The position numbers were made by a program, and so were the translations under genes. This document shows positions 1 through 32,742 of a stretch of DNA of 64,000 nt, one piece after another. Position 1 is the first letter of the stretch. The number at the start of each line of letters is the position of its first letter. The DNA comes from Patescibacteria group bacterium (GTDB lineage Bacteria > Patescibacteriota > JAHJAL01): positions 11,752 to 75,751 of the forward strand of contig DAIRGB010000001.1 in assembly GCA_036794765.1 (NCBI GenBank), read 5' to 3'. The notes beneath the pieces are model-generated. The model was not told the DNA's origin. It saw nothing but the letters and a program-made list of their open reading frames with translations, and made no database searches.

Positions 1-15
1 TGCAACCTGGCGGCA

Positions 16-978: not shown

Positions 979-1164
979 AAAATATTGTGGTCTTTCAGGG
1001 GTGTGTTATAGTAGGGTTAAATTTGATTTAGATTTAAAGTAATGAGAATTAAAGCTTACATTTTACACATGAATTATCGCGGTTGCGTAAAACCGCATTT
1101 TGTCGTGGGCTTTTTCTCTAATAATTATCAGAATATTTCATAGGATACAAATAATTTTTAAAGA

Positions 1165-1197
1165 TAGAGCCCAGAGATTTACTTCTGGGCTTTTTTA
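1165..1197 (+). terminator. Rho-independent terminator-like hairpin followed by a T-run. It lies about 60 nt upstream of the ABC-F start, so it may be an attenuator.
   Basis: Stem GCCCAGA at 1169-1175 pairs with TCTGGGC at 1184-1190, with an 8-nt loop between them. TTTTTT follows at 1191-1196. Confidence 0.5.
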
Positions 1198-1259
1198 TGT
1201 AAGAGTTTGCTATATTCTACTAGGCTTTTCTATTTTTTAAACGAAAAAATGGAGTTGTT

Positions 1260-2732
1260 ATGTTACTTGTAAAAAATTTGACAAAATACATTAATCACCA
1301 ATTGCTTTGGGAAAATCTGAGTTTTACTCTGCACAAAAAAGACAAAGTGGGATTGATTGGTGCGAATGGGTGTGGAAAATCGACGTTGTTGAAAATAATT
1401 GTGGGATTGGAGAATTGTGATGAGGGTTCGGTTTTGGCGAAGGGGGAGAGAATTGGGTATTTGTCTCAGGAATTTTCAGAAAAGAAAGAAACGACGATAA
1501 GTGAATATTTGAATCTAGAAAATGATTATCGCGGTTATAAAGCTTTGTCGAAGGTAGGATTGGATGAAATTGATATGTACATGCCCGTTGGAAATCTGAG
1601 CGGTGGTCAGAAGACGCGATTGGTGTTGGCCAAGGTATTGATTGATCAACCGACTTTATTGTTGATGGATGAGCCAACCAATCATCTGGATGAGAGTGGA
1701 ATAAAGTGGTTGGAAAAATTTACACGGGATTTTCCCGGTATAGTATTGGTAGTGACTCATGATCGACAGTTTTTACAAGAGGCGGTAAATAAGATTGTAG
1801 AAATCGACAAAGCCAACAATCGAATAAACGAATATGTGGGAAACTATGAAGATTATTTGCGGGAGAGAGAGATAATGATGAAAAATTGGCAGGTCAGTTA
1901 TGAAAATCAAGAGAAGGAAAGAAAAAGATTGGAAAATTGGCTAGCTTTAAAAAGACAGGAAGCAAGTGTTTTTAAAGATCCGGCCAAAGGAAGACAGGTT
2001 AGACAGATGGAAAAAAGGATTGATAGAGAGATTTATCAGAACAAGATAGCTAAACCATTGGATTTGAAAACGGTGGCGGGGTTGTCTTTTAAAGGTAATA
2101 TATGGCGCGATAAATTGGTTTTAAGGTTAGAGGATTTGACAAAAAAATTTCGGGACAAAATAATTTTGAATGGAATAAACCTTGAAGTGCGAGGGCAAGA
2201 TAGAATATTGATTGGTGGTGACAATGGATCGGGAAAAACGACTTTGCTGAAAATTATCGTTAATGATTTGGCGCCGGATGATGGTTTGGTAAAGATTGGT
2301 GAGAATTTGCGATATTCATATTTTTCACAGGAGCTGAAAAATCTTGATGGTGAGCGAACGTTGTTGGACGAATTGTTGGTTTCCAGAACAGAAGATTATA
2401 TTGGTATTAGTCAGGCCAGATCGATATTGGGTTGTTTCCTGTTTTCCAAGGATGATATTTACAAAAAAGTTGAAGTATTGAGTTTTGGTGAGAAGGTTAG
2501 ATTGATTTTTGCCAAGATGATAAATCTAGAAAATCATTTATTGATATTGGATGAGCCGACTAATCATTTGGATATTCCGACCAGGGAAATTATCGAAAAA
2601 GCGTTAAATGATTATGAGGGTTCGTTGATTGTTGTCTCGCATGATCGTTATTTTGTGAAACAGATTGGATTGAATAAAAAGTATTTGTTGGAGGATGGTA
2701 AACTAAATTTAATACAGGAGCGAATCAGATGA
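1260..2732 (+). CDS. ABC-F family protein. It has two ABC ATPase domains and no transmembrane domain. The class resembles the EttA/Uup/antibiotic-resistance ABC-F proteins.
   Basis: Walker A motifs GANGCGKST and GDNGSGKTT. ABC signatures LSGGQKTRL and LSFGEKVRL. Walker B motifs LLLMDEPTNHLD and LILDEPTNHLD. An interdomain linker of about 80 aa rich in charged residues. GGAG ribosome-binding site 8 nt upstream. The stop overlaps the next start as ATGA. Confidence 0.85.
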   Translation: MLLVKNLTKYINHQLLWENLSFTLHKKDKVGLIGANGCGKSTLLKIIVGLENCDEGSVLAKGERIGYLSQEFSEKKETTISEYLNLENDYRGYKALSKVGLDEIDMYMPVGNLSGGQKTRLVLAKVLIDQPTLLLMDEPTNHLDESGIKWLEKFTRDFPGIVLVVTHDRQFLQEAVNKIVEIDKANNRINEYVGNYEDYLREREIMMKNWQVSYENQEKERKRLENWLALKRQEASVFKDPAKGRQVRQMEKRIDREIYQNKIAKPLDLKTVAGLSFKGNIWRDKLVLRLEDLTKKFRDKIILNGINLEVRGQDRILIGGDNGSGKTTLLKIIVNDLAPDDGLVKIGENLRYSYFSQELKNLDGERTLLDELLVSRTEDYIGISQARSILGCFLFSKDDIYKKVEVLSFGEKVRLIFAKMINLENHLLILDEPTNHLDIPTREIIEKALNDYEGSLIVVSHDRYFVKQIGLNKKYLLEDGKLNLIQERIR

Positions 2733-3715
2733 AAAATGTAATTGAAGTAACTAATTTGTGTAAATATTTTTCTATAAAACAAAAAGAGTTTGGGTTTTTG
2801 GGTGGGATAAAGTCGTTGTTTAGACCGAAATATAAAATGGTCGAAGCGGTAAACAATATTTCATTTGAGGTAAGAGAAGGTGAATTGTTGTCATTTATCG
2901 GTCCAAATGGGGCAGGGAAGTCAACAACAATAAAAATGCTGACAGGTATATTGTTTTCGACTGGTGGACGGATCGAGGTTTTAAATGTTGATCCGCAAAA
3001 ACAAAGACAAAAATTGGCTTTTAAAATCGGGTCGGTGTTTGGACAGAAGTCGCAGCTTTGGTATCATCTGCCACCGTTGGATACTTATAATTTGTATGCC
3101 AAAATATACGAATTGGATCAAAAGAAATATAAAGCAAGATTAGATTTTTTGGTGGAACAGTTTGAGATTGCTGATTTACTCAAAATACCGGTTAGAAAAC
3201 TGTCTTTGGGACAAAGGATGAGGTGCGAAATTGCTGCTTCGCTTTTGCATCAGCCTCGAATATTATTTTTGGATGAACCAACAATCGGTTTGGACGTGAT
3301 TGCTAAACAAAAAATTCGGGAAGTTATAAAGTTTTTGAATGAGAAAGAAAAAGTGACGATTTTTTTAACATCGCATGATGTCGGTGATATTGAGTCTTTA
3401 GCCAAAAGAACAATTATTGTCAATCACGGTCGAATTGTTTTTGATGACGAGACAAGAAGATTGAAGGAAAGATATGTAACGAAGAAGATTGTCGAATTGA
3501 TATTTGAGCAAAAAGCCAAAAAATTTGAATATCCTGCTGGGAAAGTAATTGAGAGAAAGGAAAATCGAGTTAAAGTGGAAATTGATTTGCAGGAGAAGGC
3601 GATTGATAAATTGCTGGGTTTTGCGGTTAAAAATTACGATATTATCGATATGAATGTTTATGATCGACCGATGGAGGAAATAATCGCGGATATCTATCGG
3701 CAGGAGGATTTATGA
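2729..3715 (+). CDS. ABC transporter ATP-binding protein of the ABC-2 exporter type. It resembles the COG4586-type ATPase with a C-terminal extension.
   Basis: Walker A GPNGAGKSTT. Signature LSLGQRMRCE. Walker B LFLDEPTIGLD. H-loop TSHD. ATGA overlaps with both neighbouring genes. Confidence 0.85.
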   Translation: MKNVIEVTNLCKYFSIKQKEFGFLGGIKSLFRPKYKMVEAVNNISFEVREGELLSFIGPNGAGKSTTIKMLTGILFSTGGRIEVLNVDPQKQRQKLAFKIGSVFGQKSQLWYHLPPLDTYNLYAKIYELDQKKYKARLDFLVEQFEIADLLKIPVRKLSLGQRMRCEIAASLLHQPRILFLDEPTIGLDVIAKQKIREVIKFLNEKEKVTIFLTSHDVGDIESLAKRTIIVNHGRIVFDDETRRLKERYVTKKIVELIFEQKAKKFEYPAGKVIERKENRVKVEIDLQEKAIDKLLGFAVKNYDIIDMNVYDRPMEEIIADIYRQEDL

Positions 3716-4542
3716 GAACCCGGGAGATGATAATAAATATCAATTGGAAGTTGACTAAATATTTTGAGATAGCTCGTTTGGCTTATGTTAATTCCGGGGC
3801 GTATTTGGCCAATATTTTGGGTAAAAGCCTGACAGTGGTTTTACGAATTTGGATTTTTACACAATTGTATCGAGTAACTTTTGCGGTTGCAGCTGTTGAT
3901 GTGGTGGGAGGTTTGACAGTAGCACAGGTGATTTGGAGTTTGATGTTGGTTCAAAGTTTTGAGACCTCAACCAAACCAATGATTTCCAAATTGATTGATG
4001 AAGAAATAAAATCTGGTTCTTTTGCTTATCAAGTTAATAAACCATATTCGTATATTTTTTATCATTTGGCCGGTTATTTCGGGAGGGTGGCGGCTAATGT
4101 TGGTTCAAATTTATTGATTGGATCGGTGGCGGCTTGGTTTTTAGTGGGAGCTATTGGTTCGAGTTGGTTGGGATTGTTTTTTGGTTTGTTGATTTTAGTA
4201 TTGGGATACGCTTTGGATTTTTTAATTTCATTGAGTATTGGTTTAGTTGCTTTTTGGTGGGAAGATTCAAATACAATTATGTGGATGTATTCTAAAGGCC
4301 GATTTTTATTGGGTGGTGTGATTTTGCCGATTGCTTTGTTTCCGGAGAAGATTCAGAAAATTGCTGAGTTGTTGCCTTTTGCCAATTTGTATTATGCGCC
4401 GGCGAGAATAATGGTAAATTTTGAGTGGAATTTGGTGGAAAAATTTGTGTTAGTTCAATTGGCGTGGATTATTTTTTTTATTATGATTGTTTCAATAATG
4501 TATAGTCGGGGAGTAAAAAATGTGGCAATTAATGGTGGTTAA
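3712..4542 (+). CDS. ABC-2 family transporter permease, designated subtype A.
   Basis: 276-aa protein with about 6 hydrophobic helices. Translationally coupled to the upstream ATPase. Confidence 0.65.
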   Translation: MRTREMIININWKLTKYFEIARLAYVNSGAYLANILGKSLTVVLRIWIFTQLYRVTFAVAAVDVVGGLTVAQVIWSLMLVQSFETSTKPMISKLIDEEIKSGSFAYQVNKPYSYIFYHLAGYFGRVAANVGSNLLIGSVAAWFLVGAIGSSWLGLFFGLLILVLGYALDFLISLSIGLVAFWWEDSNTIMWMYSKGRFLLGGVILPIALFPEKIQKIAELLPFANLYYAPARIMVNFEWNLVEKFVLVQLAWIIFFIMIVSIMYSRGVKNVAINGG

Positions 4543-5323
4543 AAAATATTTCGGTTTGATCTGGGAGGTGGTGAAAACCAATTTGATGACGGCGATGGAA
4601 TATCGGATGAGTTTTATCTTGCAGGTAATTGGTATGATGGCCAATGATTTGTTGATGATTGTTTTGTGGGTGATATTTTTTCAGCGGTTTGGCGAAATCA
4701 ATGGTTGGACTTTCCAAGACACGGTAATGTTGTGGTCGATTACGACGGTAAATTTTGCGATTGTTATGGTGATGTGTCGTGGGGTTTTTGAATTGGCAAA
4801 AACAATTACTCGTGGGGATTTGGATTATTATTTGTCATTTCCGGTGGATACTTTGTGGTATGTAGCGGTGAGCCAAATGTCGGTGCCGGCGGTAGGGGAT
4901 TTGTTTTTTGGGATTGTGTTGTATTTGTTGTATGGCGATTTGAGTCTTTCGGGTATTGCTTTGTATATTTTTTTGTGTGGGGTGACGGCTTGGATATTTT
5001 TTAATTTTGTTGTTTTGACACAATCAATTGCTTTTTTTGTGGGTAATTTTGAAGAAGCGGCGGAACAATGGTATCACTCGTTGCTGGGTTTTACTTTATA
5101 CCCACAATCGGTGTTTCATGGTGTTTTGAAAATGTTGATGTTTACTTTGGTACCGGCGTTTTTTATTGCAACTTTACCGGTGGATCTTATCAATCAGTTT
5201 TCTTGGGAAAAAATATTCTGGTTATTTGGTTTTGGTTTGATTACTTTTTTGATAGCAGTTGGATTATTTAGACGGGGATTGAAAAGATACGAGTCGGGAA
5301 ATTTGATTAGTTTCAAGATGTAA
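4520..5323 (+). CDS. ABC-2 family transporter permease, designated subtype B. It has an N-terminal KYFxxxW amphipathic segment and a C-terminal GLKRYESG motif.
   Basis: 267-aa protein with about 6 transmembrane segments. Overlaps the upstream gene by 23 nt. The same family recurs five times downstream. Confidence 0.65.
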   Translation: MWQLMVVKKYFGLIWEVVKTNLMTAMEYRMSFILQVIGMMANDLLMIVLWVIFFQRFGEINGWTFQDTVMLWSITTVNFAIVMVMCRGVFELAKTITRGDLDYYLSFPVDTLWYVAVSQMSVPAVGDLFFGIVLYLLYGDLSLSGIALYIFLCGVTAWIFFNFVVLTQSIAFFVGNFEEAAEQWYHSLLGFTLYPQSVFHGVLKMLMFTLVPAFFIATLPVDLINQFSWEKIFWLFGFGLITFLIAVGLFRRGLKRYESGNLISFKM

Positions 5324-5384
5324 TTTTTAGATTAAAAAATGATAGAATATAGTTAATTACTGATTGAATTGGTATTGATTTGAG

Positions 5385-5503
5385 TGAAATATTTTTATGT
5401 ATTATTTTTTCTTTTTTTAAGACTCGGGCAATACCTCTAATGAAAAGATTATTTATCTTAAACAAGTTAAAAAAAGAAAAAATAATACATAAAAATATTT
5501 CAC
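5385..5503. repeat. Copy 1 of a long palindromic element. It has perfect 37-nt inverted-repeat arms and a core of about 45 nt. It may be a structured ncRNA, a bidirectional terminator or a MITE-like element.
   Basis: The left arm GTGAAATATTTTTATGTATTATTTTTTCTTTTTTTAA is the exact reverse complement of the right arm ending at 5503. The core contains GACTC, CTAATGA and AACAAG, which are shared with copy 2 at 36824-36940. Confidence 0.55.
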
Positions 5504-5550
5504 CCAAGTTATTCTTTTGATAAAGTTTTTTATAAAAATAAATAAAAATT

Positions 5551-6528
5551 ATGTCGATTATAAAGGTTGAAAACTTGACCAAGGTTTTTGAATTGAATAA
5601 AAAGAAGGAAGGATTTTGGAATTCGGTTAAGGGACTTTTCAAGAGTGAAAAAACTTTGGTGAAGGCAGTAGACAAAGTGTCGTTTGAAATTGAGAAAGGA
5701 GAGTTGGTTGGTTTTTTGGGGCCAAATGGGGCAGGGAAGACCACAACTTTGAAAATGTTGGCGGGAATATTGTATCCGACTAGTGGTAGTGCCAAGATTT
5801 TAGGATATTATCCCTGGGATCATCAAAATGAGTTTAAGTCGCAGATTGCGATGGTGATGGGACAGAAGTCACAATTGTGGTGGGATTTGCCGGCGATGGA
5901 AACTTATTTACTCAATCAAGATATTTATGAAATTCCAGAAAAGACTTTTCGTAAAAATTTGAATTATCTGGCGGATATTTTGGATGTGGGGGAGTTTTTG
6001 GAGGTGCCAGTGCGGAAGTTGTCTTTGGGACAACGTATGAAATGTGAGTTGATTGCGGCTTTACTGCATGATCCGAAAGTGATATTTTTGGATGAGCCGA
6101 CGATCGGATTGGATGTGACTAGTCAAAAAGCGGTGCGAAGTTTTATCAAAGACTACAATCAAAAAAAGAAAGCGACGATTATTTTGACTAGTCACTACAT
6201 GGAAGATATTAAAGAATTGTGCAAGCGGGTGATTATTATCAATCAGGGACAGAAAATATATGATGATACTTATGCCGGATTGGTAAAAAAATATGCTCAA
6301 GAAAAACAGATTGAAATATTTTTTGAAAAACCGGTTTATAAAAGAGATTTTGTGGGATTGGGAAAATTGTTGGAGTTTTCCAACCAAAAAGTTTTATTAT
6401 CGGTTTCAAGAGACAAGGTGTCGGATGTGTTGGGTAAATTGGTCAAGAAATTTGCTATTGATGATATTGATGTTAAAGAGAAGCAAGCGGCGGATATTAT
6501 TGCCGAGATGTTTGCGGAGAATAAATAA
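5551..6528 (+). CDS. ABC transporter ATP-binding protein of the ABC-2 exporter type. It is a paralog of the gene at 2729-3715.
   Basis: Walker A GPNGAGKTTT. Signature LSLGQRMKCE. Walker B IFLDEPTIGLD. H-loop TSHY. Same length class as its paralog (325 aa). Confidence 0.85.
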   Translation: MSIIKVENLTKVFELNKKKEGFWNSVKGLFKSEKTLVKAVDKVSFEIEKGELVGFLGPNGAGKTTTLKMLAGILYPTSGSAKILGYYPWDHQNEFKSQIAMVMGQKSQLWWDLPAMETYLLNQDIYEIPEKTFRKNLNYLADILDVGEFLEVPVRKLSLGQRMKCELIAALLHDPKVIFLDEPTIGLDVTSQKAVRSFIKDYNQKKKATIILTSHYMEDIKELCKRVIIINQGQKIYDDTYAGLVKKYAQEKQIEIFFEKPVYKRDFVGLGKLLEFSNQKVLLSVSRDKVSDVLGKLVKKFAIDDIDVKEKQAADIIAEMFAENK

Positions 6529-6529
6529 T

Positions 6530-6608
6530 ACATTTAAAACTCTTTAAAACTAAAATAGTAACAGTTTGTCAGGGTTTGTAAGTGTTTATAAGAGTTTTTA
6601 AGGGTTTT
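6530..6608. repeat. Phased A-tract repeat spacer made of roughly 10-bp units such as TTTAAAACTC and TTATAAGAGT, present in both orientations.
   Basis: TTTAAAACTCTTTAAAACTA is followed by an inverted GTTTATAAGAGTTTTTAAGGGTTTT. The same word family occurs at 8276-8355, 9163-9252, 10070-10160 and 32620-32742. Confidence 0.5.
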
Positions 6609-7403
6609 ATGCAAAGGTATTTCAAAATATTATGGCGGATTGCGCGGATGTCGTTGGCGACTAGTTTGATGTATAAAACTGATTGGATATTGGGGGTATT
6701 TACAACATTTTCATATTCAGGTTTGCAGATATTTTTTATTGCAATGCTTTTTAGTTCAGGGGGATTGACGAGAATTGTTGGTTTTAGTGTTTGGCAGATG
6801 GTTTTAGTTTTTATGTTTGGGCAGATAATATATTTTTTTGCATTTACTTTTATATTTGAAAATGTTGGTTTGTTTCGTTATAAGGTAATGCAAGGAGAAT
6901 TGGACCATTTTTTACTGAGGCCAATTTCGCCGGTGTTCTTGTTGTCATTTCAAAAATTTGGTTTGGTTGAGGCTTCGGCAATAATTACATATACTTTGGC
7001 GACGTTGATATATTTGTTTATTAGAACGGATGTGTTATTTTCTGAAACGCAATGGTTGACGATTGGTGTGATATTTATTGGTTCTTTGGTTTTGATGTCT
7101 TGTATTTATTGGATCGCCGGGTTGATATTTTTTTATTGGCCAAATTTTTTGGCAATATGGTGGATGTTAAATAATATTAGTGATGTGGCCAAATATCCTC
7201 GTAGGATTTATCCCTCAGCGATGCAATGGTTTTTAATATTTTTTATTCCATTATTTTGTATGGTAAATCCGCTTTATGATGTTATGGATGGATCATTTGA
7301 TTTTTGGCGCGGTTTGGATATTTTTTTAGTAATAACGATGTTTGTTTTAATATATTTAATGATGTGGAAAGATGGTTTGAGACGTTATTCTTCGGCGGCT
7401 TAA
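6609..7403 (+). CDS. ABC-2 family permease of subtype B. The ORF track starts at 6582. The start proposed here is the Met of MQRYFKILWRIARMS, which matches the paralog N-termini.
   Basis: Conserved N-terminus KILWRIARMS...Y and C-terminus GLRRYSSAA. Six hydrophobic helices. Confidence 0.65.
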   Translation: MQRYFKILWRIARMSLATSLMYKTDWILGVFTTFSYSGLQIFFIAMLFSSGGLTRIVGFSVWQMVLVFMFGQIIYFFAFTFIFENVGLFRYKVMQGELDHFLLRPISPVFLLSFQKFGLVEASAIITYTLATLIYLFIRTDVLFSETQWLTIGVIFIGSLVLMSCIYWIAGLIFFYWPNFLAIWWMLNNISDVAKYPRRIYPSAMQWFLIFFIPLFCMVNPLYDVMDGSFDFWRGLDIFLVITMFVLIYLMMWKDGLRRYSSAA

Positions 7404-7482
7404 ATAGTCAATTAACAATGAATAATTAACAATTAAAAATTGATTGTAAAAAGTAATATTTTCCAAATAATTTTTTTAAAAA

Positions 7483-8274
7483 ATGAAAAAATATAAAAGA
7501 CTGTTTAGTAATTTTATTCAGATGAATCTGGCTTATCGCGAGAATTTTTTTGCTGAGTTGGTGATGCGGTCACTGGGGTTTTTTATTATGATTTTTTTGT
7601 GGAAAGCGGTGTATGCACAGAGGACATCGATTCAGGGATTTAGTTTCAATGAATTGCTAACATATTTTTTGATTGTGGAAGTTTTTCGACATTTGTTGGA
7701 AGCGAAAACTTTTTTGGAGATTAAAGAGGGGGTGCAAAAGGGGACGATTGCCAATTACTTATTATTACCGATTGATTCGATTAAAATATATTTTTCCCGG
7801 ACATTGGCGAGGAGTATTTTGTCGTTTGTCTTTTTTATTGTGCCGGTTTTATTTTTGATATATGGGACGAAAATTTTTGTGTTGCCACCGAGTATTTGGT
7901 ATTCGTTGATGACAATCGGGATGGGAATTATTGCGATGTTTATGAGTTTGTTGTTGTACACGATATTTGGCAGTATAGCTTTTTGGACGGTGGAAACGGG
8001 AAATATTATTTGGGCGTTCAATTTTATTGTGATGTTTTTGGCGGGAAAGATGATCCCTTTACAGTTTATGCCTGGTTTAATTAAAACCTTAGTTGGATAT
8101 TCGCCATTGGCGTCATTGTTCAATTTGCCGGCGACTTTGTATTTGGGAAAATTATCTTATACAGAAGCTTTGATCCAATTTGGGGTGCAGATTGGTTGGC
8201 TTTTGATTCTTTATTTGTTACTCAGATGTATTTGGCGAAAAGGGCTTAGGAGAATGGAGTTGGTGGGAGGGTGA
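7483..8274 (+). CDS. ABC-2 family permease of subtype A. Its N-terminus NLAYRENFFAELVM resembles that of the permease at 3712-4542.
   Basis: 263 aa, polytopic. C-terminus GLRRMELVGG. Confidence 0.6.
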   Translation: MKKYKRLFSNFIQMNLAYRENFFAELVMRSLGFFIMIFLWKAVYAQRTSIQGFSFNELLTYFLIVEVFRHLLEAKTFLEIKEGVQKGTIANYLLLPIDSIKIYFSRTLARSILSFVFFIVPVLFLIYGTKIFVLPPSIWYSLMTIGMGIIAMFMSLLLYTIFGSIAFWTVETGNIIWAFNFIVMFLAGKMIPLQFMPGLIKTLVGYSPLASLFNLPATLYLGKLSYTEALIQFGVQIGWLLILYLLLRCIWRKGLRRMELVGG

Positions 8275-8275
8275 A

Positions 8276-8355
8276 AAACTTATCAAACTTATCAAACATA
8301 GCAAACAAAAACCCTTATAAACTCTTTAAAACACTTTTAAACTCTTAGAAACTAT
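8276..8355. repeat. Phased roughly 10-bp A-tract repeat spacer.
   Basis: ATCAAAC, AGCAAAC, CTTATAAACT, CTTTAAAACA, CTTTTAAACT and CTTAGAAACT follow one another at about 10-bp spacing. Confidence 0.5.
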
Positions 8356-8364
8356 CATTATGAT

Positions 8365-9159
8365 ATGCAAAAGTATGGAAAAATTTTGTGGCGGATAATC
8401 AGAATGGCGGTGATGCGGGATATGATGTATAGGATAGATGTTTTTATAAGCTCGCCCGCGGCTTTTTTTTATATTTTGATAAATATTTTTTGGATAAAAT
8501 ATTTATTTGGGGCGATCGGAGATCAAGAAATTGCCGGGTATAACAATTGGGATTTTTATCTGCTGTTGTTTACTGGACAAATTGGGGCGGCGTTGTTTTT
8601 TGCCTTTATACAAAAGAGTTCCAATGCTGTTCGAGAGCAAATATTGAAAGGAGATTTGGATTATTTTTTGATAAAACCGGTTGCAAGTTGGTTTTTGATA
8701 AGTTTTCAGGACATTAATTTCCGAGTGTTTGTTTCTATTATTGGATATTTGGTAATTGGGGTTCCTTGGATTATTGTTGCCGGGAATTATCATTTTAATA
8801 TTTGGCAGTGGATAAACATTGTTTTGATATTGGTTTTTTCATTTGTTCTATCATTTGCGGTGCGATGGATAGTAACTTTGTTAAGTTTTTTTTGGGATAG
8901 ATTTGATGCCGGGATATTTTTTATTGAGTCGTTGGAAAATGTAAGTTCCTTTCCAAAATCAATTTTTCCCGGGAGTTTGCAATTCATTTTTTTGTATATA
9001 TTGCCGATGGCAATGATAAATGCACCGATTTTTCAGGTAATTGACTATTCATGGAATATTAGTTTGTTGATTGAGATGATTGGGGTGATGATCATTTTTC
9101 TTCTATTGCTGGGGTTGATGTGGAGGTTTTCATTAAAGAAATATGGGTCGGCGGGGTGA
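8365..9159 (+). CDS. ABC-2 family permease of subtype B.
   Basis: N-terminus KILWRIIRMAVMRDMMY. C-terminus KKYGSAG. Polytopic. Confidence 0.65.
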   Translation: MQKYGKILWRIIRMAVMRDMMYRIDVFISSPAAFFYILINIFWIKYLFGAIGDQEIAGYNNWDFYLLLFTGQIGAALFFAFIQKSSNAVREQILKGDLDYFLIKPVASWFLISFQDINFRVFVSIIGYLVIGVPWIIVAGNYHFNIWQWINIVLILVFSFVLSFAVRWIVTLLSFFWDRFDAGIFFIESLENVSSFPKSIFPGSLQFIFLYILPMAMINAPIFQVIDYSWNISLLIEMIGVMIIFLLLLGLMWRFSLKKYGSAG

Positions 9160-9162
9160 GAG

Positions 9163-9252
9163 AAGCAAAAACTTAACAAACATATCAAACATATCAAACG
9201 TATTAAACACTTAGAAACGCTTTTAAACGCTTAAAAACACTTTGAAACTGTA
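9163..9252. repeat. Phased roughly 10-bp A-tract repeat spacer.
   Basis: AACATATCAAACATATCAAACGTATTAAACACTTAGAAACGCTTTTAAACGCTTAAAAACACTTTGAAACTG. It can be aligned with the spacers at 8276 and 10070. Confidence 0.5.
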
Positions 9253-9269
9253 ATATTTAAAATAAATTA

Positions 9270-10064
9270 ATGAAAAGTTATTGGAAAATATTTTGGCGGG
9301 TGGCGAAGATGTCGTGGATGGTGACGGCCAGTTATAAAATTGATCTATTGGTGGGTTATACTACATCATTTATTTATTTTTTGTCACACTTGGGAATGGT
9401 ATATATTTTATTTCAGATATCTGAAAATAAGACAATTGCTGGTTTTGGTCAATTTGAGTTTTATTTTATTTTCGGTTTGGTTGAAGTATTATGGTTTATT
9501 TGTTTTGGTTTCTTTTATATCAATTCAAATAAATTGATTGATCAAATAGTTGAAGGCAAAATTGATTTTCTTTTGTTAAAGCCAAAAAATAATTTATTTT
9601 TAGTGATTTTTCAAGAAATAAACTTGGACGATTTATTGGCGATGTTTTTTTATCTTTTTTTGACTTTGGGATTGGTGAATTACATGGATTGTTGGGAATG
9701 GTTGATCAATAATTTGTGGTCGATAATAATGGTAGAAATCTGTTCAATAATTTTACTGTTTCTTTTAATTTGGATTGGTTCGTTTATCAATTTTTATTGG
9801 CCGCGTTTTATGGTGTTTAGATTGATGGTGATACACAATTCTGATATTTCACAGTTTCCCAGGCAAATATACCCTAGGTGGATGCAAGTAATATTGATGT
9901 GGGTTTTTCCATTACTTTTGATGACTTCGCCAGTTTTTGATTTGTTTTCCGGGGGTTTAAATGGGTGGTTTTGGTTGAATGTTTTTCTAGAGATTGTTGC
10001 CTTGTCATTGATTTTCATTTTAATGTGGCGGGATGGTATTCGGAGATATTGTTCGGCGGGGTGA
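9270..10064 (+). CDS. ABC-2 family permease of subtype B.
   Basis: N-terminus KIFWRVAKMSWMVTASY. C-terminus IRRYCSAG. Polytopic. Confidence 0.65.
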   Translation: MKSYWKIFWRVAKMSWMVTASYKIDLLVGYTTSFIYFLSHLGMVYILFQISENKTIAGFGQFEFYFIFGLVEVLWFICFGFFYINSNKLIDQIVEGKIDFLLLKPKNNLFLVIFQEINLDDLLAMFFYLFLTLGLVNYMDCWEWLINNLWSIIMVEICSIILLFLLIWIGSFINFYWPRFMVFRLMVIHNSDISQFPRQIYPRWMQVILMWVFPLLLMTSPVFDLFSGGLNGWFWLNVFLEIVALSLIFILMWRDGIRRYCSAG

Positions 10065-10069
10065 GGGAG

Positions 10070-10160
10070 TGAAAAACATAACAAATTTATCAAACATATC
10101 AAACTTAGCAAACACTTAGAAACTCTTTTAAACTCTTTGAAACGCTTTTAAACTGTAATT
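10070..10160. repeat. Phased roughly 10-bp A-tract repeat spacer.
   Basis: ACAAATTTATCAAACATATCAAACTTAGCAAACACTTAGAAACTCTTTTAAACTCTTTGAAACGCTTTTAAACTG. Confidence 0.5.
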
Positions 10161-10168
10161 ATTAAAAA

Positions 10169-10966
10169 TTGATGAAGAAATATTTTAAAATATTTTGGCG
10201 GGTGGGGAGGATGAGTTTGATGCGGGATATGATGTATCCGGCTGATTTTTGGACGGGGAGTTTTTCGGGAATTGTGTTTATGGCTTCGCAAATGTTGTTG
10301 ATCTGGTTTTTATTTAAAACCAGTCAGTCGGAGACTATTGCGGGATATGACATGTGGCAGATTTATTTTGTATATGGAGTTTATAATTTTGTTGTTGGTT
10401 TGGCTTATGTCTTTTTGTTGAATAATTCTTGGTCGTTCACGAGTGGAATAATTGCTGGCTTGCTTGATCTGGATTTGATTAAACCGATAAATAGTTTTGT
10501 GGCATTGTATATGAAAGAATATGAAATGGTGGTGGAGGTGATTAGTGTATTGGTTTCGTTTTTCTTGAGTTTTTGGTTGGCGATAAGCGGCAGAGTTGAA
10601 TTGAATTGGACTCAGGTTGTTTTGATATTGGTGGTAATGTTACAATCTTTTTGCCTGTATTGTGTATTGTATATTATTAGTTCAGTAATTGAACTTTTTG
10701 TTAGCCGATTTTCGGTTTTAAGGTTTATGATGCATGAATTTGATGTGGTGACAAGTTATCCTCGGCGAATGTATCCGTTGGCGATGCGGTATATTTTGTT
10801 GTTTGTCTGGCCGTTTTTTATGATTGTTAGTCCGATTTATGATATTTTTGATCAAACGTTTGATTTTGAGAAAATATTTATTTGGTCGGGAGTGAACATT
10901 ATTTTTTTATTGATATTAATCTTGATGTGGACAAGTGGTTTGAAAAAATATTGTTCGGCGGGATAG
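10169..10966 (+). CDS. ABC-2 family permease of subtype B.
   Basis: N-terminus KIFWRVGRMSLMRDMMY. C-terminus LKKYCSAG. Polytopic. Confidence 0.65.
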   Translation: MMKKYFKIFWRVGRMSLMRDMMYPADFWTGSFSGIVFMASQMLLIWFLFKTSQSETIAGYDMWQIYFVYGVYNFVVGLAYVFLLNNSWSFTSGIIAGLLDLDLIKPINSFVALYMKEYEMVVEVISVLVSFFLSFWLAISGRVELNWTQVVLILVVMLQSFCLYCVLYIISSVIELFVSRFSVLRFMMHEFDVVTSYPRRMYPLAMRYILLFVWPFFMIVSPIYDIFDQTFDFEKIFIWSGVNIIFLLILILMWTSGLKKYCSAG

Positions 10967-11026
10967 CGTTGGGAGAAATTTGAATTATTATTTGTTGTCG
11001 GGTAAAATGTAAAATAGTTAGTTTTT

Positions 11027-11098
11027 GCGGGCATAGTATAAAGGCTATTATATTACCTTGCCATGGTAAAGATACGGGTTCGATTCCCGTTGCCCGCT
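11027..11098 (+). tRNA. tRNA-Gly with anticodon GCC.
   Basis: Acceptor stem GCGGGCA pairs with TGCCCGC. Anticodon stem-loop TTACC/TTGCCAT/GGTAA. T-arm ACGGGTTCGATTCCCGT. Discriminator U. CCA is not encoded. Confidence 0.85.
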
Positions 11099-11189
11099 TT
11101 TTTGTAGTGAGAGGATTAACGTTTTTTTCTTCTCATTTTTTTGTGTCTTTACATTGTATTTATCAGATTATATACTTTGAGAGGAAAAA

Positions 11190-11585
11190 TCGGGTAATTG
11201 CTCAATTGATTTTTGGAGTTAATTGAGAGGAAAGTCCGAGCGTTTTTAACAAATTTTTGATTTGTGATGGTGATTGAGAGAAACAATCGTCCTCCTTCGC
11301 CTAACGGCTACGGCGGATAGGGAAAGTGCCACAGAGACGATACTAGTCCGCCTTCGCTTTTTTAGCTATGGCGGGTGAAAGGTGAAAAGTTTGCTTTTAA
11401 GCAAATTACTTATTGGTGACAATAAGTGTTGGTAAACCCCACCAAAATGCAAGAGGATATAAACCTCGCCGGAGCTTGGTAGCGATATCAAGCCAAGATA
11501 GATGATTACCGTGAGAATTTTATTCTCATACAGAACTCGGATTATAGATTTTTCCAATCAAATTACGAATTGTGAGTTACAAATT
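11190..11585 (+). ncRNA. rnpB: RNase P RNA, bacterial type A-like. The ends are approximate.
   Basis: Conserved P4 5' strand GAGGAAAGTCCGAGC at 11226-11241. GGGAAAGTGCCACAGAGACG. GGGTGAAAGGTGAAAAG. GGTAAACCCCACCAAAATGCAAG. P4 3' strand ACAGAACTCGGATTAT at 11530-11546. The terminal sequences are complementary, which gives a P1 helix. Confidence 0.75.
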
Positions 11586-11669
11586 ACGGGAAAGTAATGG
11601 TAAATCAGGGTTCGTAATTTTTTTTAGGTTTTTTGTTATAATTGTGATGATTCGTAAAAACTTAATTTT

Positions 11670-13115
11670 ATGAAAAGATCGGAAGTATTTTTTAATATTT
11701 CTTTGGTTTTTATTGATATTGCCATGATTTTGGTTGGCTTTGCTTTGGCCTACGAGATTAGATTGTATGCTTCAGATTTTGTGCCGGTGAAATGGGTTTT
11801 GCCTTTGAATGAATATTTGAGGTATATTATTTTGTTTATTCCGGTTTGGTTGGGAGTTTTTGCAGTGATGGGTTTGTATGCTTTTCGGGGGGTGGGGAGT
11901 TTTGTGTCGGAAATGTTGAAAGTAGTTTTGGCGGTATCGGCGACGATTAGTTTGATGATTTTGATTATCTTTTTTAATCGAGATCAATTTTTTTCACGTT
12001 TAATAATTATCTATGCATGGTTGTTTGTGACGGCAATGGTGGTGGTTGGTAGATTGGTTTTGCGGGCAGGTCAAAAATTTTTGTATCGATATGGGGTTGG
12101 AGTGCGAAGGGTGTTGATTGTGGGAGCAAATACTGTGGCGTGCGAATTAATTGAAGTGTTGGCAAAAAATAGTGATGGTTGGGAGTTGGTAGGAGTGATG
12201 GACGAAAAAAAACAACAAGGAGAAAAAGTATTGGGGAAATATCGGGTTTTGGGAGGGAGAGATAAGTTAGAAAAAATTAGAAAAAGATATCATATTGATG
12301 AAATATGGTTGGCTGAGGCAAAAAAGACAGATGAGGAAATGATAGATTTGATCAGTTTTTGTCAAAATTATGATCTGACTTTTCGTTTTGTTCCCAGTAT
12401 ATTGGAAGTAGTAAGTGCCAATGTGGAAACCCAGGCGGTAGCGGGTATGCCTTTGATTGCCTTGAAAGATACTGCTTTGGAGGGTTGGGGAAGAATAATT
12501 AAAAGAGTATTGGATATAATATTTTCTGTGGTAGTTTTGGTTTTTTTGTGGCCAGTTTTGTTATTGATTGCGTTGGCGGTAAAGTTGGATTCGCCCGGTC
12601 CAGTTTTTTATAAATCTGTCAGGGTGGGAAGAAAAGGAAGACTGTTTACTTTGTATAAATTTCGGTCAATGAAAGTAGAATATAGTATTGGTGAAGAGTA
12701 TGGTGGAAAAGAGGCGGAAAAGTATCGGGAAGAATTAAAGAAAAAAAATATAGCTGATGGTCCGATGTTCAAAGTTGAGGATGATCCACGAATAACCAGG
12801 GTAGGGAGCTTTATTCGCAAAACGAGATTAGATGAATTGGCTCAGATAATAAATGTGATGCGAGGGGAAATGAGTTGGATTGGTCCTAGGCCGCCATTGC
12901 CAGATGAGGTTAAACAGTATGAATCTCATCATTTGAAGAGGTTGGCAATTAAAAGTGGGATTACTGGTCCGTGGCAGGTGACGGGACGTCATGATTTGAC
13001 TTTTGACGAGATTGTGAAGTTGGACACGTATTATATTGAACATTGGTCTTTGGGCTTGGATTTGCAAATATTTTTTAAGACGATTTGGTTGATGTTGACG
13101 AAGAAGGGAGCTTAG
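11670..13115 (+). CDS. Polyprenyl-phosphate glycosyl-1-phosphate transferase of the bacterial sugar transferase family (WbaP/EpsL-like).
   Basis: Four or five N-terminal transmembrane segments. The C-terminal domain contains KFRSM...DGPMFKVEDDPRITRVGSFIRKTRLDELAQIINVMRGEMSWIGPRP. Confidence 0.8.
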   Translation: MKRSEVFFNISLVFIDIAMILVGFALAYEIRLYASDFVPVKWVLPLNEYLRYIILFIPVWLGVFAVMGLYAFRGVGSFVSEMLKVVLAVSATISLMILIIFFNRDQFFSRLIIIYAWLFVTAMVVVGRLVLRAGQKFLYRYGVGVRRVLIVGANTVACELIEVLAKNSDGWELVGVMDEKKQQGEKVLGKYRVLGGRDKLEKIRKRYHIDEIWLAEAKKTDEEMIDLISFCQNYDLTFRFVPSILEVVSANVETQAVAGMPLIALKDTALEGWGRIIKRVLDIIFSVVVLVFLWPVLLLIALAVKLDSPGPVFYKSVRVGRKGRLFTLYKFRSMKVEYSIGEEYGGKEAEKYREELKKKNIADGPMFKVEDDPRITRVGSFIRKTRLDELAQIINVMRGEMSWIGPRPPLPDEVKQYESHHLKRLAIKSGITGPWQVTGRHDLTFDEIVKLDTYYIEHWSLGLDLQIFFKTIWLMLTKKGA

Positions 13116-13163
13116 AAATAATTTCCAATTCTCAATTTTCAAACAATATTTTGTTGGGATATT

Positions 13164-14297
13164 ATGAAAAACATTAATAATATAAAGGTGGCGATTGTTT
13201 GTGATTGGTTGACTAATCCGGGTGGAGCAGAGAAGGTGGTGGAGGTGTTGGCGGATATTTTTCCTGAAGCTCCGATTTTTACTTCGGTTTGCGATCGAAA
13301 TCGTTTTAAATGGTTAAAAAAAAGAAAATTGATTACTTCCTGGTTGGATAGATTGCCGATAATAAGATACAAACATCAGTTGATGGCGCCATTTCGGCCA
13401 ATGGTGTTTGAAGGTTTTGATTTTTCGGAATATGATTTGGTTTTTTCTTTGACGAGTGCGGAGGCAAAAAATATTATAACTAAACCAAAAACTATTCATA
13501 TTTGTTATTGTCATACGCCGATAAGATATTATTGGAGTGATTATCATGAATATTTGAATCATCGTTTGGAGTTTGGGGTATTTAATCCTTTGATAAAATT
13601 GATTATGCCATTTTTGGTAAATAGTTTGCGGATTTCTGATAGAATGGCGGCAGATAGAGTAGATTATTTTTTGGCTAATTCTATCAATGTAAAAACAAGG
13701 ATAGAAAAATATTATCGTCGAGAATCAGAAGTGATATATCCGCCAGTGGAAGATGAATTTGAGGTAAAAAGGGGAGAAAAAAGTCAGAATGATTATTATT
13801 TGTGTTTAGGCCGTTTGGTTCCTTATAAAAAAGCTGATCTGGTCGTAGAAGCGTTTGTTAAAAATGGAAGAAGACTATTGGTTTCCGGTGAGGGGCCTTT
13901 GTTGTCTCGGTTGAAAAAAATAGCTGAGGGAAAAAGGAATATTGAAATATTGGGACGGGTGGATGATAATGAAAAAAAGATTTTGCTGGAAAATTGCAAA
14001 GCCTTGGTTTTTCCTGCGGAAGAAGATTTTGGAATTGTACCGGTGGAAGCAATGATGTGTGGCAAGCCGGTAGTTGCTTTTGGTAAGGGGGGGGCAAGGG
14101 AAACGGTGGTGGAAGATTTGTCGGGTGTGTTTTTTGAAAAACAGGATGTGGATTCATTGAATAAGGCAATAGTAATTTTGGAAAGAAAAAGATGGGATGA
14201 AAAAAAAATATCGGCTTGGGCGAGTAAGTTTAGGCGTGAAGTGTTTGTGAAAAATATCAATGAATTTGTAGCTAAAGTATTAAAAAGAGAAGTTTAA
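13164..14297 (+). CDS. Glycosyltransferase family 4.
   Basis: C-terminal GT-B motif EDFGIVPVEAMMCGKPVVA. Confidence 0.75.
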   Translation: MKNINNIKVAIVCDWLTNPGGAEKVVEVLADIFPEAPIFTSVCDRNRFKWLKKRKLITSWLDRLPIIRYKHQLMAPFRPMVFEGFDFSEYDLVFSLTSAEAKNIITKPKTIHICYCHTPIRYYWSDYHEYLNHRLEFGVFNPLIKLIMPFLVNSLRISDRMAADRVDYFLANSINVKTRIEKYYRRESEVIYPPVEDEFEVKRGEKSQNDYYLCLGRLVPYKKADLVVEAFVKNGRRLLVSGEGPLLSRLKKIAEGKRNIEILGRVDDNEKKILLENCKALVFPAEEDFGIVPVEAMMCGKPVVAFGKGGARETVVEDLSGVFFEKQDVDSLNKAIVILERKRWDEKKISAWASKFRREVFVKNINEFVAKVLKREV

Positions 14298-14346
14298 ATT
14301 GATAGTTGGCAATTAAAAATTGTGTTTTTAGTTTTTAATTATTAAT

Positions 14347-14970
14347 TTGATCAAAATGGATTTTAAAAAATCAATTCGTCCGTTGGTTGATTATTGGTGG
14401 TTAGTGTTGTTGAGTATGGTTATTGTTGTAGTGTCTCTGGTGATAATTGATAAATCGCAAAGTGCTGAATATGAGGGGACTATGACTTTGATTGTCAAAC
14501 AGACTATGCCTGTATCTGATGATTCTGGTTATAAATACGATGGATATTATGCAGTAATGGCCAATCAAACTTTTGCGGATACTTTAGAAAGTTGGCTTAA
14601 GAGTCCAGAGATGGTAGCGGAAATTTATGAAAAAGCAGAAATTGCTTATCCTAAAACTATGAGTGCATTAAGAGGTAGATTTGACGTGGAAAAGGTCATA
14701 TCTCAGAGTGTAGCGGTGGGAGTTAAGACTGGTTCCAGACAAGAAACTGAGGATTTATTGAATGCGACAAATGAAGTTATGAAATCGAGAATTGAGGGAA
14801 TGTTGGTTGATAAAGATGGTAAACCATTATTTACATTGAATAGATCAAATGTTTTAGTTTTGCCTTATACGATTGATTATCGATTGCAATTTGGGGTAGG
14901 TATTATGGGGGCAATTTGTGTGGGGATCTTTTTAGCTTATCTTATGTCGGCGATTTCTAAAGAAAAATAA
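14347..14970 (+). CDS. Wzz/CapA-like polysaccharide chain-length determinant protein. This is a small form and the assignment is tentative.
   Basis: N-terminal basic segment followed by a transmembrane segment, WWLVLLSMVIVVVSLVII, and then YEGTMTLIV. A C-terminal transmembrane segment. This topology matches the Wzz-like 2-TM fold. Confidence 0.45.
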   Translation: MIKMDFKKSIRPLVDYWWLVLLSMVIVVVSLVIIDKSQSAEYEGTMTLIVKQTMPVSDDSGYKYDGYYAVMANQTFADTLESWLKSPEMVAEIYEKAEIAYPKTMSALRGRFDVEKVISQSVAVGVKTGSRQETEDLLNATNEVMKSRIEGMLVDKDGKPLFTLNRSNVLVLPYTIDYRLQFGVGIMGAICVGIFLAYLMSAISKEK

Positions 14971-14982
14971 GAGGGAGGCAGT

Positions 14983-16071
14983 TTGAGAATATTGGTTGAT
15001 GCCAGGGGATTACTTGAAGAGACGAAGGCGGGTGTTGAAGGATACACTTACAATATGTTGGTTAATTTACAGAGAATGTACCCAAAGGATGAGTACATTC
15101 TTTTTTCATATTCTAGAACCAGAAGTCCAGAATCGGAGTTGGCAGATAAATGGCAATGGAAGCATTTTAGGTGGTCAAATCTTTTGGTTTCGGCTTCGTT
15201 TAGAATGTTAGGATATCCGGTAGTGGATAAGATTTTGGGTGATTTTGATTGGGTTTGGTTTCCGAATATTCGTTTTTTTCCGGTTAGCAAACAGATAAAG
15301 AAAATTGTGACAGTTCATGATTTGTCTTTTGAGATTATGCCTGATTGTTATTCGCACAAAAGAAGACTATGGCATTGGTATATGAATATCAGAAAAAATT
15401 TATTGGCGGCGCAAAAAGTGGTTTGTGTGTCGGAAAATACACGTCAGGATTTACTGGAAAGATATCATATTGAAGGGGAAAAGGTGTTTACTATTTATCC
15501 AGGGTTGGAATGTGAAAAATTTTGTGTTCCAAAGAAAGGAAAAAAAAGTAGATATATCGTATTTTTAGGAACATTGGAAGAGAGAAAAAATATTTTGACT
15601 TTGCTTAAAGCATATGAATATTACTCTCTTAGATTGACAGAACGTCCTTTAAAATTGGTATTAATAGGATCAAATTGTTTGACGTGGAATATTAAAGAAT
15701 ATTTGCGAGAGAGAAATATGCAAAACAGAGTAATGGTGTGCGGGTATTTGAATGATGAAGATCGGAATAAAATATTGTCGGAGTCGGCTGTGGTGGTATA
15801 TCCTTCTTATTACGAAGGTTTTGGTTTTCCCCCTTTGGAGGCGATAGCAATGGGTATTCCATCACTTTCTTCTTTTTGTGGTTCATTGGGAGAAGTATTA
15901 AGTAATAAATGTATGTTGCTTGATCCGTTGGATTATAAAACTTTAGCAGTGAATATTTCTCAGATATTAGATTCTGATTTGGAGAAAAAGAATAATGATT
16001 TAGGTGATTTTTTTCAAAGATATGATTGGGAGAAGTCGGCGTATCTTTTTCGAGAAATATTGGATAGTTGA
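14983..16071 (+). CDS. Glycosyltransferase family 4.
   Basis: YEGFGFPPLEAIAMGIP motif. Position in the locus with the other glycosyltransferase. Confidence 0.75.
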   Translation: MRILVDARGLLEETKAGVEGYTYNMLVNLQRMYPKDEYILFSYSRTRSPESELADKWQWKHFRWSNLLVSASFRMLGYPVVDKILGDFDWVWFPNIRFFPVSKQIKKIVTVHDLSFEIMPDCYSHKRRLWHWYMNIRKNLLAAQKVVCVSENTRQDLLERYHIEGEKVFTIYPGLECEKFCVPKKGKKSRYIVFLGTLEERKNILTLLKAYEYYSLRLTERPLKLVLIGSNCLTWNIKEYLRERNMQNRVMVCGYLNDEDRNKILSESAVVVYPSYYEGFGFPPLEAIAMGIPSLSSFCGSLGEVLSNKCMLLDPLDYKTLAVNISQILDSDLEKKNNDLGDFFQRYDWEKSAYLFREILDS

Positions 16072-16092
16072 TGATATAATTGGATTATAAAA

Positions 16093-32619: not shown

Positions 32620-32742
32620 ACAAACCCTTATAAACTCTTTAAAACTCTTTTAAACACTTAAAAACTATGGGAATTATGAGAGTGTTTATTGTAAAGTTTG
32701 TAAGAGTATATAAGGGTTTCTAAGTGTTTATAAGAGTTTTGT
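32620..32742. repeat. Imperfectly palindromic block of the 10-bp phased A-tract repeat family. It lies upstream of tRNA-Asp.
   Basis: AAACCCTTATAAACTCTTTAAAACTCTTTTAAACACTTAAAAACT is followed by the same word set in inverted orientation, GTTTATAAGAGTTTT etc. Confidence 0.5.

Follow-up and report, generated by a model that had tools for sequence, protein, structure and literature searches.

The window analysed here, 64,000 nucleotides (nt) of contig DAIRGB010000001.1 from a Patescibacteria group bacterium (assembly GCA_036794765.1), carries at 5551-10966 a gene for an ATP-binding cassette (ABC) ATPase, ATP2, followed by five permease genes, P1 to P5 (Table 1). An open reading frame (ORF) scan identified these as six intact, co-directional ORFs on the + strand. 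All five permeases matched the Pfam family PF06182 (ABC2_membrane_6, formerly DUF990) with 62-93 bits, against a gathering cut-off of 22 bits. A sequence-only reading had described an ATPase and five co-directional paralogous permeases of about 264 amino acids at this place, and this description stands: the B-type genes defined below encode 264 and P2 263 amino acids. The translation starts of P1 and P5 were set to the ATGs at 6609 and 10172 because orthologs show these starts. The closest NCBIfam model for ATP2 was drrA; the score with TIGR01188 was 215 bits compared with a cut-off of 312 bits, which makes ATP2 a relative and not an equivalog. ATP2 is 42% identical to the ATPase of system 1, a further PF06182-type gene set of the window.

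Gene content and subunit types of the array

For typing of the permeases, hidden Markov models (HMMs) of an A-type and a B-type subunit were built within this analysis. P1, P3, P4 and P5 scored 315-331 bits with the B-type HMM. The two models separated P2 from these four proteins and likewise told apart the two permeases at canonical loci. The gene order B, A, B, B, B, proposed earlier on the basis of N-terminal signatures, was thus confirmed, and the B-type N-terminal motif K-I-[LF]-W-R-[IV]-x-[RK]-M is exact in P1, P3, P4 and P5. A C-terminal G-L-[RK]-[RK]-[YM] motif assigned to all five permeases is conserved only approximately: P1 ends with SSAA, P3 has S-L-K-K-Y and P4 has G-I-R-R-Y at this position.

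Both features of the PF06182 family, a dedicated ABC ATPase and two subtypes of membrane subunits, were found in the array. The PF06182/EVE layout of one ATPase, one A and one B was not; the ratio in the array is 1:1:4. Five permeases for one ATPase, as emphasized before, are indeed a departure from the canonical layout. An alternative genetic code with TGA as a sense codon was considered, as the last codon of P2, P3 and P4 is TGA and one of the relatives carries the label Gracilibacteria. It was rejected in favour of code 11, because TGA closes ORFs where genes naturally end, in one case within an ATGA at which stop and start overlap.

Divergence and age of the permease paralogs

Pairwise identity among the four B proteins is 30-34%, compared with 22-26% between them and P2. 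At the nucleotide level, similarity among the B paralogs is restricted to the gene ends and spacers, and the near-identity along the whole length that marks a recent tandem duplication was not observed. In a rough neighbour-joining tree, the A proteins formed a tight clade, while the B branches were long and deep, with some orthology across lineages. Each B paralog has its own ortholog in relatives and arrays with several B genes occur throughout the clade (see below). The suggestion of a recent amplification therefore had to be abandoned, since the B proteins share only 30-34% identity and nucleotide similarity is confined to ends and spacers. Of the alternative picture of deeply diverged, ancient and non-paralogous families, the first two attributes apply to the genes in the relatives; the B genes are paralogs nevertheless.

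The ratio of nonsynonymous to synonymous substitutions (dN/dS) was determined against L014, a related locus with the same gene order (related loci are given here as L numbers). Amino acid identity decreased and dN/dS increased in the order ATPase (96%, 0.03), P2 (93%, 0.08), P3 (90%, 0.10), P5 (84%, 0.13), P4 (70%, 0.19) and P1 (61%, 0.29, at a dN of 0.29). For P1 and P4, dS was about 1.0; the values of the other four genes ranged from 0.46 to 0.82. The dN of P4 and P1 was four to seven times above that of the A gene. Frameshifted pseudogenes had been named as a possible objection; the ORFs are uninterrupted both in the window and in the relatives, and the permeases show dN/dS values of 0.08-0.29. 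Purifying selection thus acts on every gene, and all copies are functional.

P1 is the most variable gene of the array, with 60-62% identity to its counterparts in L014, L019 and L002. The four P1 versions are 60-79% identical to each other, compared with 88-99% for P2 among the same and related contigs. In detail, P2 is 88-93% identical among distinct close relatives, 99% identical in the near-identical mosaic L002 and 56-63% identical across the clade. Orthologs of P3 in L005 and L006 show 77-80% identity, and P5 and its L005 ortholog 53%. Among 25 B sequences, residues 1-20, 92-105 and 251-264 are conserved, corresponding to an N-terminal helix (M-x-KY-x-KI-x-WR), a G-x-LD-x-x-LIKP motif at about 92-105 and a C-terminal tail (W-x-x-GL-x-RY-x-SA). 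Residues 111-175 form the most variable stretch between B orthologs.

Variation of the locus among relatives

DNA identical to the window was found in several metagenome assemblies. An exact-match search with the ATPase gave no result; P3 and P2 led to the strain of origin. The nearest genome record, L014, is a metagenome-assembled genome listed as 'Patescibacteria group bacterium' and has the layout of the window, with an ABC-F gene, system 1, the ATPase and P1, P2, P3, P4 and P5. L005 contains P2-P3-P5-like genes followed by a tRNA-Gly gene, and P4 is missing. In L019 the order is permuted: P1-P2 are followed by a P4-type gene (53-58% identical to P4 orthologs) and then by the P3 ortholog. 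L002 matches the window at 100% identity over 7742-10382, but the value drops to about 93% in the first 260 nt of P2 and, at the nucleotide level, to about 70% across P1. This pattern reflects either recombination or the joining of two co-occurring alleles during assembly. A seemingly different gene after P2 in L040 and L041 turned out to be only another start-codon call, the DNA being 100% identical to the window.

Throughout the clade, defined by A proteins 56-93% identical to P2, the A gene is always single and the B gene multiple. Five B genes per locus were found in L007, L008, L016 and L022, four in the window and L014, three in L010 and L018, and two in L011-13, L015, L020 and L023. L045 has at least four consecutive PF06182 genes and a fifth ORF upstream for which no Pfam record exists. 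A comparison of synteny in related genomes, proposed earlier as a check on copy number, thus gives 2-5 B genes per locus. Relatives differ in copy number, in gene order and in sequence, in agreement with the idea of a diversification hot spot. Where the A protein is 56-63% identical to P2, the neighbourhood often consists of alanine racemase, ABC-F, the array, TGT, a sugar transferase and GT4. Outside this range, L024, L025, L028-30 and L037, whose A proteins are 22-26% identical to P2, and the mid-range locus L043 have one A and one B gene each; an ATPase was detected in all of these except L028. A signal peptidase I gene (Peptidase_S26) lies between two B-type permease genes in L011 (10055-10819), and likewise in L012 and L013.

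A HMMER search retrieved 3950 family representatives at E ≤ 1e-3 and only 47 at E ≤ 1e-30, which indicates that the clade with expanded B genes is small. A word-indexed homolog search with P3 gave only five matches. The array is characteristic of one Patescibacteria clade, with one ATPase, one slowly evolving A gene and at least two to five B genes. In the searchable literature we found no description of PF06182 arrays with multiple permeases.

Spacers and their repeats

Spacers S2, S3 and S4 (90, 110 and 107 nt) each contain approximately four 9-nt AAACATATC units followed by approximately four 10-nt AAACNCTTNN units. S3 and S4 are 83% identical over 125 nt including the flanking gene ends, and the period of gene plus spacer is 902-905 nt. 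Homologous phased-repeat spacers had been described in front of four of the five permease genes. This is clear for S2-S4 and partly true for S0, where the 10-mer is mostly inverted; S1 is unrelated, and nearly the same S1 sequence occurs in L019. S0 folds with -14.2 kcal/mol (z = -1.95). S2-S4 are C-rich and almost free of G, a local reversal of the G>C skew of the + strand, and as RNA they are predicted to be essentially unstructured: the minimum free energy (MFE) of S2 is -0.4 kcal/mol, and S3 is less folded than 194 of 200 shuffles.

The 10-mer pattern matched 23 times in the window against 4.7 expected, a number reached by none of 100 shuffles. Besides the array, it forms an inverted pair at 32622-32739 with a hairpin of -33.8 kcal/mol (z = -3.9). 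The spacers of L014, which has the same gene order, contain a different unit, AATTTCCA, together with its inverse, and form hairpins. Other units are AAGAAAT in L007 and L016, AAATYTCA in L011 and L013 and CTCAAAA/GATCAAA hairpins in L005, and L019 contains a mix of window-type and L014-type repeats. In general, the 7-10-nt spacer repeats of the relatives are arranged as forward and inverted blocks forming hairpins, and their unit varies even between close relatives. They are enriched compared with flanking DNA in the array stretches of L014 (8889-13900), L007 (8793-13420), L011 (8793-12181) and L005 (851-2816). Array spacers account for 19 of 21 repeat matches in L014, nine of ten in L007 and four of five sites in the window.

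A segmental duplication of gene-plus-spacer units, as suggested by the sequence-only reading, does not agree with the other repeat in L014 or with the 10-mer at 32622-32739. Rather, spacer turnover far outpaces that of the genes, and the spacers are homogenized within each array: the similarity of the spacers is young and the genes are old, because the repeats of L014, L007 and L011 differ and the 10-mer recurs outside the array. Homogenization within arrays points to frequent recombination inside the array and not to co-duplication with the genes.

The spacers resemble repetitive extragenic palindromic (REP) sequences and bacterial interspersed mosaic elements (BIMEs) in being short, extragenic and genome-specific and often forming inverted-pair hairpins between co-transcribed genes, as in S0, at 32622-32739 and in the spacers of L014, L005 and L006. 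They differ from REP/BIME in that the units are 7-10-nt tandem repeats, S2-S4 have a single, unstructured arm and, in the three lineages counted, the elements are concentrated in the permease array. Their dispersal is limited to five sites in 64 kb, four of them in the array (hairpins at S0 and 32622-32739, single arms at S2-S4). The spacers may act as REP-like elements affecting stability or processing of the mRNA. By inspection, no Shine-Dalgarno sequence is visible upstream of the permease starts, and the single-arm spacers S2-S4 may serve such genes as unstructured leaders.

Predicted structure and relation to known transporters

An AlphaFold2 model of P2 was obtained with a mean predicted local distance difference test (pLDDT) score of 73.6 and a predicted template modelling (pTM) score of 0.71. 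The top four Foldseek hits of this model were 7k2t_D, 6oih_D, 9cfl_A and 8tsi_C, with TM-scores of 0.54-0.65 and E values of approximately 7e-4 to 1e-3; the best fold matches are Wzm, TarG and KpsM. P2 is thus predicted to have the type V (ABC-2) exporter fold, which comprises an N-terminal interface helix and six transmembrane (TM) helices. A sequence search of the PDB gave no sequence-level relative. P2 resembles the membrane subunits of Wzm-Wzt, TarGH and KpsMT in its predicted fold, its size of about 260 amino acids and an ATPase encoded on a separate polypeptide, although sequence identity to Wzm/TarG/KpsM-type structures is only 13-18%. Moreover, Wzm-Wzt, TarGH and KpsMT contain a homodimer of one membrane protein, whereas PF06182 systems have two subtypes, and here several alternatives of one of them.

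EvrABC has reportedly been described as an ethyl viologen exporter by Prosecka et al. in 2009 (cited in PMC5417439 and PMC10469934). EvrABC of Synechocystis sp. PCC 6803 (TCDB 3.A.1.141), a viologen exporter of one ATPase and two membrane proteins, is the only characterized member of the DUF990 family (PMC5417439). Homologs were noted in bins of Patescibacteria (Ca. Microgenomatia; PMC10469934), and Firmicutes operons of the family (COG3694, COG4587) are located behind ppGpp riboswitches (PMC6003355). The array shares with EvrABC the PF06182/DUF990 membrane family and an ATPase encoded together with two subtypes of membrane subunits, and system 1 as well as the more distant loci have the EvrABC-like 1:1:1 layout. 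The array differs in having four B genes with one ATPase and one A gene (2-5 B genes across the clade), and in the variation of B in number, order and sequence. The A and B subtypes separated by the HMMs may correspond to EvrB-like and EvrC-like subunits (COG4587, COG3694).

In group II energy-coupling factor (ECF) transporters, one EcfAA'T module serves several interchangeable S components, and a multitask ATPase can likewise energize more than one importer. The array resembles these systems by analogy only, as a common energizing module with alternative specificity subunits, a sharing that we infer here. Genes for S components of group II ECF transporters are scattered over the genome, in contrast to the single tandem array described here, and ECF transporters are also unrelated in fold, family and direction of transport. 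Identity with an ECF-type modular transporter is ruled out by the PF06182 match and the type V exporter fold. LanFEG-type ABC-2 transporters for lantibiotic immunity, with one ATPase and two different membrane subunits, likewise possess a heteromeric membrane pair and a drrA-like ATPase. The match of the array ATPase to the lantibiotic-protection model TIGR03740 is a generic one (E = 9e-32; 111 bits, far below the cut-off of 310 bits), the membrane proteins fall into a different Pfam family, and bacteriocin genes were not seen in the vicinity.

System 1 and flanking genes

System 1 was confirmed as a canonical set of one ATPase, one A and one B by the subtype HMMs, which assigned its first permease to type A (58 versus 31 bits) and the second to type B (95 versus 18 bits). 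The ABC-F gene upstream overlaps the start of the system 1 ATPase by an ATGA stop/start. System 1 is present in L014 and L019 and absent in L007 and L011, where the array ATPase directly follows the ABC-F gene; system 1 thus either was gained, by insertion or duplication, only in the lineage that comprises the window, L014 and L019, or was lost elsewhere.

Between system 1 and the array ATPase lies a long AT-rich inverted repeat with an MFE of -54.4 kcal/mol (z = -7.2). A similar sequence occurs at the matching position in L014, and an analogous long AT hairpin is found between the ATPase and the A-type gene in L011 and L013. The repeat had no match in Rfam and could be a terminator/attenuator, a miniature inverted-repeat transposable element or a regulatory RNA. 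When a consensus fold was computed for the long hairpin that precedes the ATPase in three relatives, the alignment was poor and no covariation emerged. Searching 5300-11000 against Rfam gave no match even at E ≤ 1, and no ykkC/ppGpp riboswitch. A scan of this AT-rich DNA for promoters and terminators was uninformative, with 33 promoter-like sites against 24.9 expected and one terminator-like site against 3.1.

On the right-hand side, the array is bounded by a tRNA-Gly(GCC) gene, which is also located after the array in L005 (95% nucleotide identity); a matching tRNA sequence follows the arrays of L007 and L011. Just past this gene are an RNase P RNA gene and then a glycan-synthesis cluster, after which gyrB, gyrA and infB are located. 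L011-L013 likewise have the pair of a transferase and GT4 downstream of the array. This gives a weak hint of a functional link between the array and the adjacent glycan genes, and only a weak one because tRNA and RNase P RNA genes intervene and synteny is partly conserved. In 1-16000, the GC content is 28-40%, all large genes are on the + strand, and this strand shows a G>C skew of approximately +0.3 to +0.55 in nearly every 500-nt interval; the strong skew probably extends over the whole window. Further downstream, a match to Rfam LOOT RNA was detected.

Table 1. Location of the array, its spacers and other features in the window
Feature	Position	Strand	Remarks
ABC-F gene	1260-2732		
System 1	2729-5323	+	canonical PF06182-type set
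System 1 ATPase	2729-3715	+	
System 1 A-type permease	3712-4542	+	
System 1 B-type permease	4520-5323	+	
Inverted repeat	5376-5520		stem about 37 bp, loop about 65 nt
ATP2	5551-6528	+	ABC ATPase, EvrA-like, 325 amino acids; PF00005 at 1e-24
S0	6529-6608		10-nt AAACNCTTNN repeat, one copy forward and three inverted; weak hairpin
P1	6609-7403	+	B-type permease, 264 amino acids from ATG 6609 (ORF from 6582); PF06182 at 1e-25; B-type HMM 329 bits
S1	7404-7482		AT-rich, 7-nt CAATTAA repeat; not homologous to S2-S4
P2	7483-8274	+	single A-type permease, 263 amino acids; PF06182 at 3e-26; A-type HMM 439 bits
S2	8275-8364		G-poor 9-nt and 10-nt phased repeats
P3	8365-9159	+	B-type permease, 264 amino acids; PF06182 at 7e-25
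S3	9160-9269		9-nt and 10-nt phased repeats as in S2
P4	9270-10064	+	B-type permease, 264 amino acids; PF06182 at 7e-17
S4	10065-10171		9-nt and 10-nt phased repeats as in S2
P5	10172-10966	+	B-type permease, 264 amino acids from ATG 10172 (ORF from 10169); PF06182 at 9e-22
tRNA-Gly(GCC)	11027-11098	+	right-hand array boundary; conserved in L005, L007 and L011
RNase P RNA	11182-11560		bacterial class A, 160 bits
Glycan-synthesis cluster	11670-18249		also contains a DUF4012 protein
Bac_transf priming transferase	11670-13115		
GT4	13164-14297		
GT4	14983-16071		
Inverted pair of 10-nt AAACNCTTNN	32622-32739		hairpin between the gene ending at 32608 and tRNA-Asp
LOOT RNA (RF03000)	60043-60160		72.7 bits, gathering score 46.4 bits

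Discussion

Taken together, our data favour, with a probability of roughly 55%, a chromosomal operon for an EvrABC-type (PF06182/DUF990, TCDB 3.A.1.141) type V ABC-2 exporter, in which the B subunit has been multiplied into an old and still changing array and a shared module pairs with alternative B subunits. The ancestral working unit was an A/B pair, because distant loci have a 1:1:1 layout matching that of EvrABC. An ATPase dimer and the single, conserved P2 would form the common module, which would pair with any one of P1, P3, P4 and P5. The outcome would be several heterodimeric A/Bx exporters of differing specificity, with a set of B subunits that varies between strains. The idea of combinatorial heterodimers raised earlier fits one conserved A and several variable B genes; the pairing itself, the differing specificity and recombination mediated by the spacers are what we infer from this pattern. 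The constant segments of the B proteins (the N-terminal helix, G-x-LD-x-x-LIKP and the C-terminal tail) would dock onto the shared partners while the transmembrane core diverges fast. By homology these segments are probably docking segments, and by analogy to type V exporters of known structure they may correspond to the interface-helix and coupling-helix regions that touch the ATPase. Successive junctions are similar over approximately 125-175 nt with 73-83% identity, which includes conserved gene ends and repeat spacers, and unequal or inter-strain recombination across them might delete, reorder or replace B cassettes. The substrate could be a toxic compound of cationic or amphipathic nature, by comparison with EvrABC, or else an envelope glycolipid or glycan.

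Several points weigh against this interpretation. A might not pair with each B; B/B dimers, or pairing of B with the A subunit of system 1, are alternatives. By analogy to ABCG-type transporters, the stretch at about 111-175 (TM3-TM4) may face lipid and not the translocation path; divergence could then reflect relaxed constraint instead of altered specificity, because the variable stretch may be lipid-facing. As dN/dS is below 1 in every gene, these values give no evidence of positive selection. Assembled automatically from metagenome data (Logan), the L002 mosaic is possibly a chimera of co-occurring strains.

How the additional B genes are used could also be explained differently. Possibly a single A/B pair (P2 with P3, for instance) does the work, and P1, P4 and P5 are redundant copies under relaxed constraint that drift towards loss. 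The highest dN values, found in P1 and P4 (dN/dS of 0.29 and 0.19 compared with 0.08-0.10 for P2 and P3), the missing P4 in L005 and a possibly lipid-facing variable stretch would agree with this. On the other hand, no copy is disrupted in any of the relatives examined, and dN/dS stays far under 1. Paralogs that have drifted apart to about 30% identity still share the terminal motifs and the G-x-LD-x-x-LIKP motif, and up to five B genes persist in small Patescibacteria genomes, from which dispensable genes would usually disappear. We consider redundancy unlikely, if worth keeping in mind. Also unlikely, and a little more so, is a set of independent B homodimers or B/B' pairs, that is, several exporters sharing one motor without P2. 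The membrane domains of Wzm and TarG, the top structural matches, are homodimeric, and the presumed ATPase-contact motifs are kept in all B genes. However, canonical loci of the family invariably combine a single A with a single B, and every expanded array sequenced through the A region keeps one A gene, with a dN/dS of 0.08. Retention of a single A under strong purifying selection in expanded arrays argues that A is still needed as a partner.

Explanations based on the repeats and the regular spacing are much less convincing. Simple-sequence repeats switch genes on and off in Neisseria, Haemophilus and Mycoplasma, and in several lineages every B gene is directly preceded by tandem 7-10-nt repeats, as would be expected of a phase-variable contingency locus in which the repeat number of a spacer controls a single B gene. 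We regard such switching as very improbable: L001, L002 (past 7742), L003, L040 and L041, further assemblies of this strain from five different samples, are 100% identical to the window across the covered spacers, so that at the level of assemblies no change in repeat number occurred among these five. The scan revealed no convincing promoter signal, and repeats in the relatives often form hairpins and not promoter spacers. Hardly tenable is a recent tandem amplification of a gene-plus-spacer unit, yielding young duplicates for dosage or in an early phase of divergence. The regular 902-905 nt period, the 83% identity of S3 and S4 and the homology of S2-S4 speak for it. Against it stand B paralogs at 30-34% identity with nucleotide likeness at the gene ends only, separate orthologs of each paralog in L014, L005, L006 and L019, and arrays with several B genes across a clade in which A is only about 56-60% identical to P2. 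In addition, the orthologous spacers of L014 contain another repeat, so that likeness of the spacers cannot date the genes. The array is a real diversification hot spot, but not the product of a recent amplification.

ABC exporters are usually described as fixed complexes of two membrane and two ATPase domains. If the preferred interpretation of one shared module with alternative B subunits is true, a constant membrane subunit that takes its partner from a variable tandem set would represent a novel, low-cost way to diversify specificity, and the logic of the array would parallel the use of S components by ECF importers. Patescibacteria, also known as the candidate phyla radiation (CPR), have reduced genomes that rarely keep redundant genes, and to our knowledge almost nothing is known about their transport biology. 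Tentatively, and with less confidence than in the operon itself, the B genes could be seen as interchangeable specificity cassettes on a chassis of ATPase and A, which are lost, reordered or replaced by recombination across gene ends and spacers. They might provide these ultra-small episymbiotic bacteria with cheap variation in export, directed at toxins of hosts or neighbours or at envelope glycolipids made by the adjacent glycosyltransferase cluster. The array offers a clean natural system for studying how paralogs of a membrane protein preserve the contacts with their partners as the remainder of the sequence changes.

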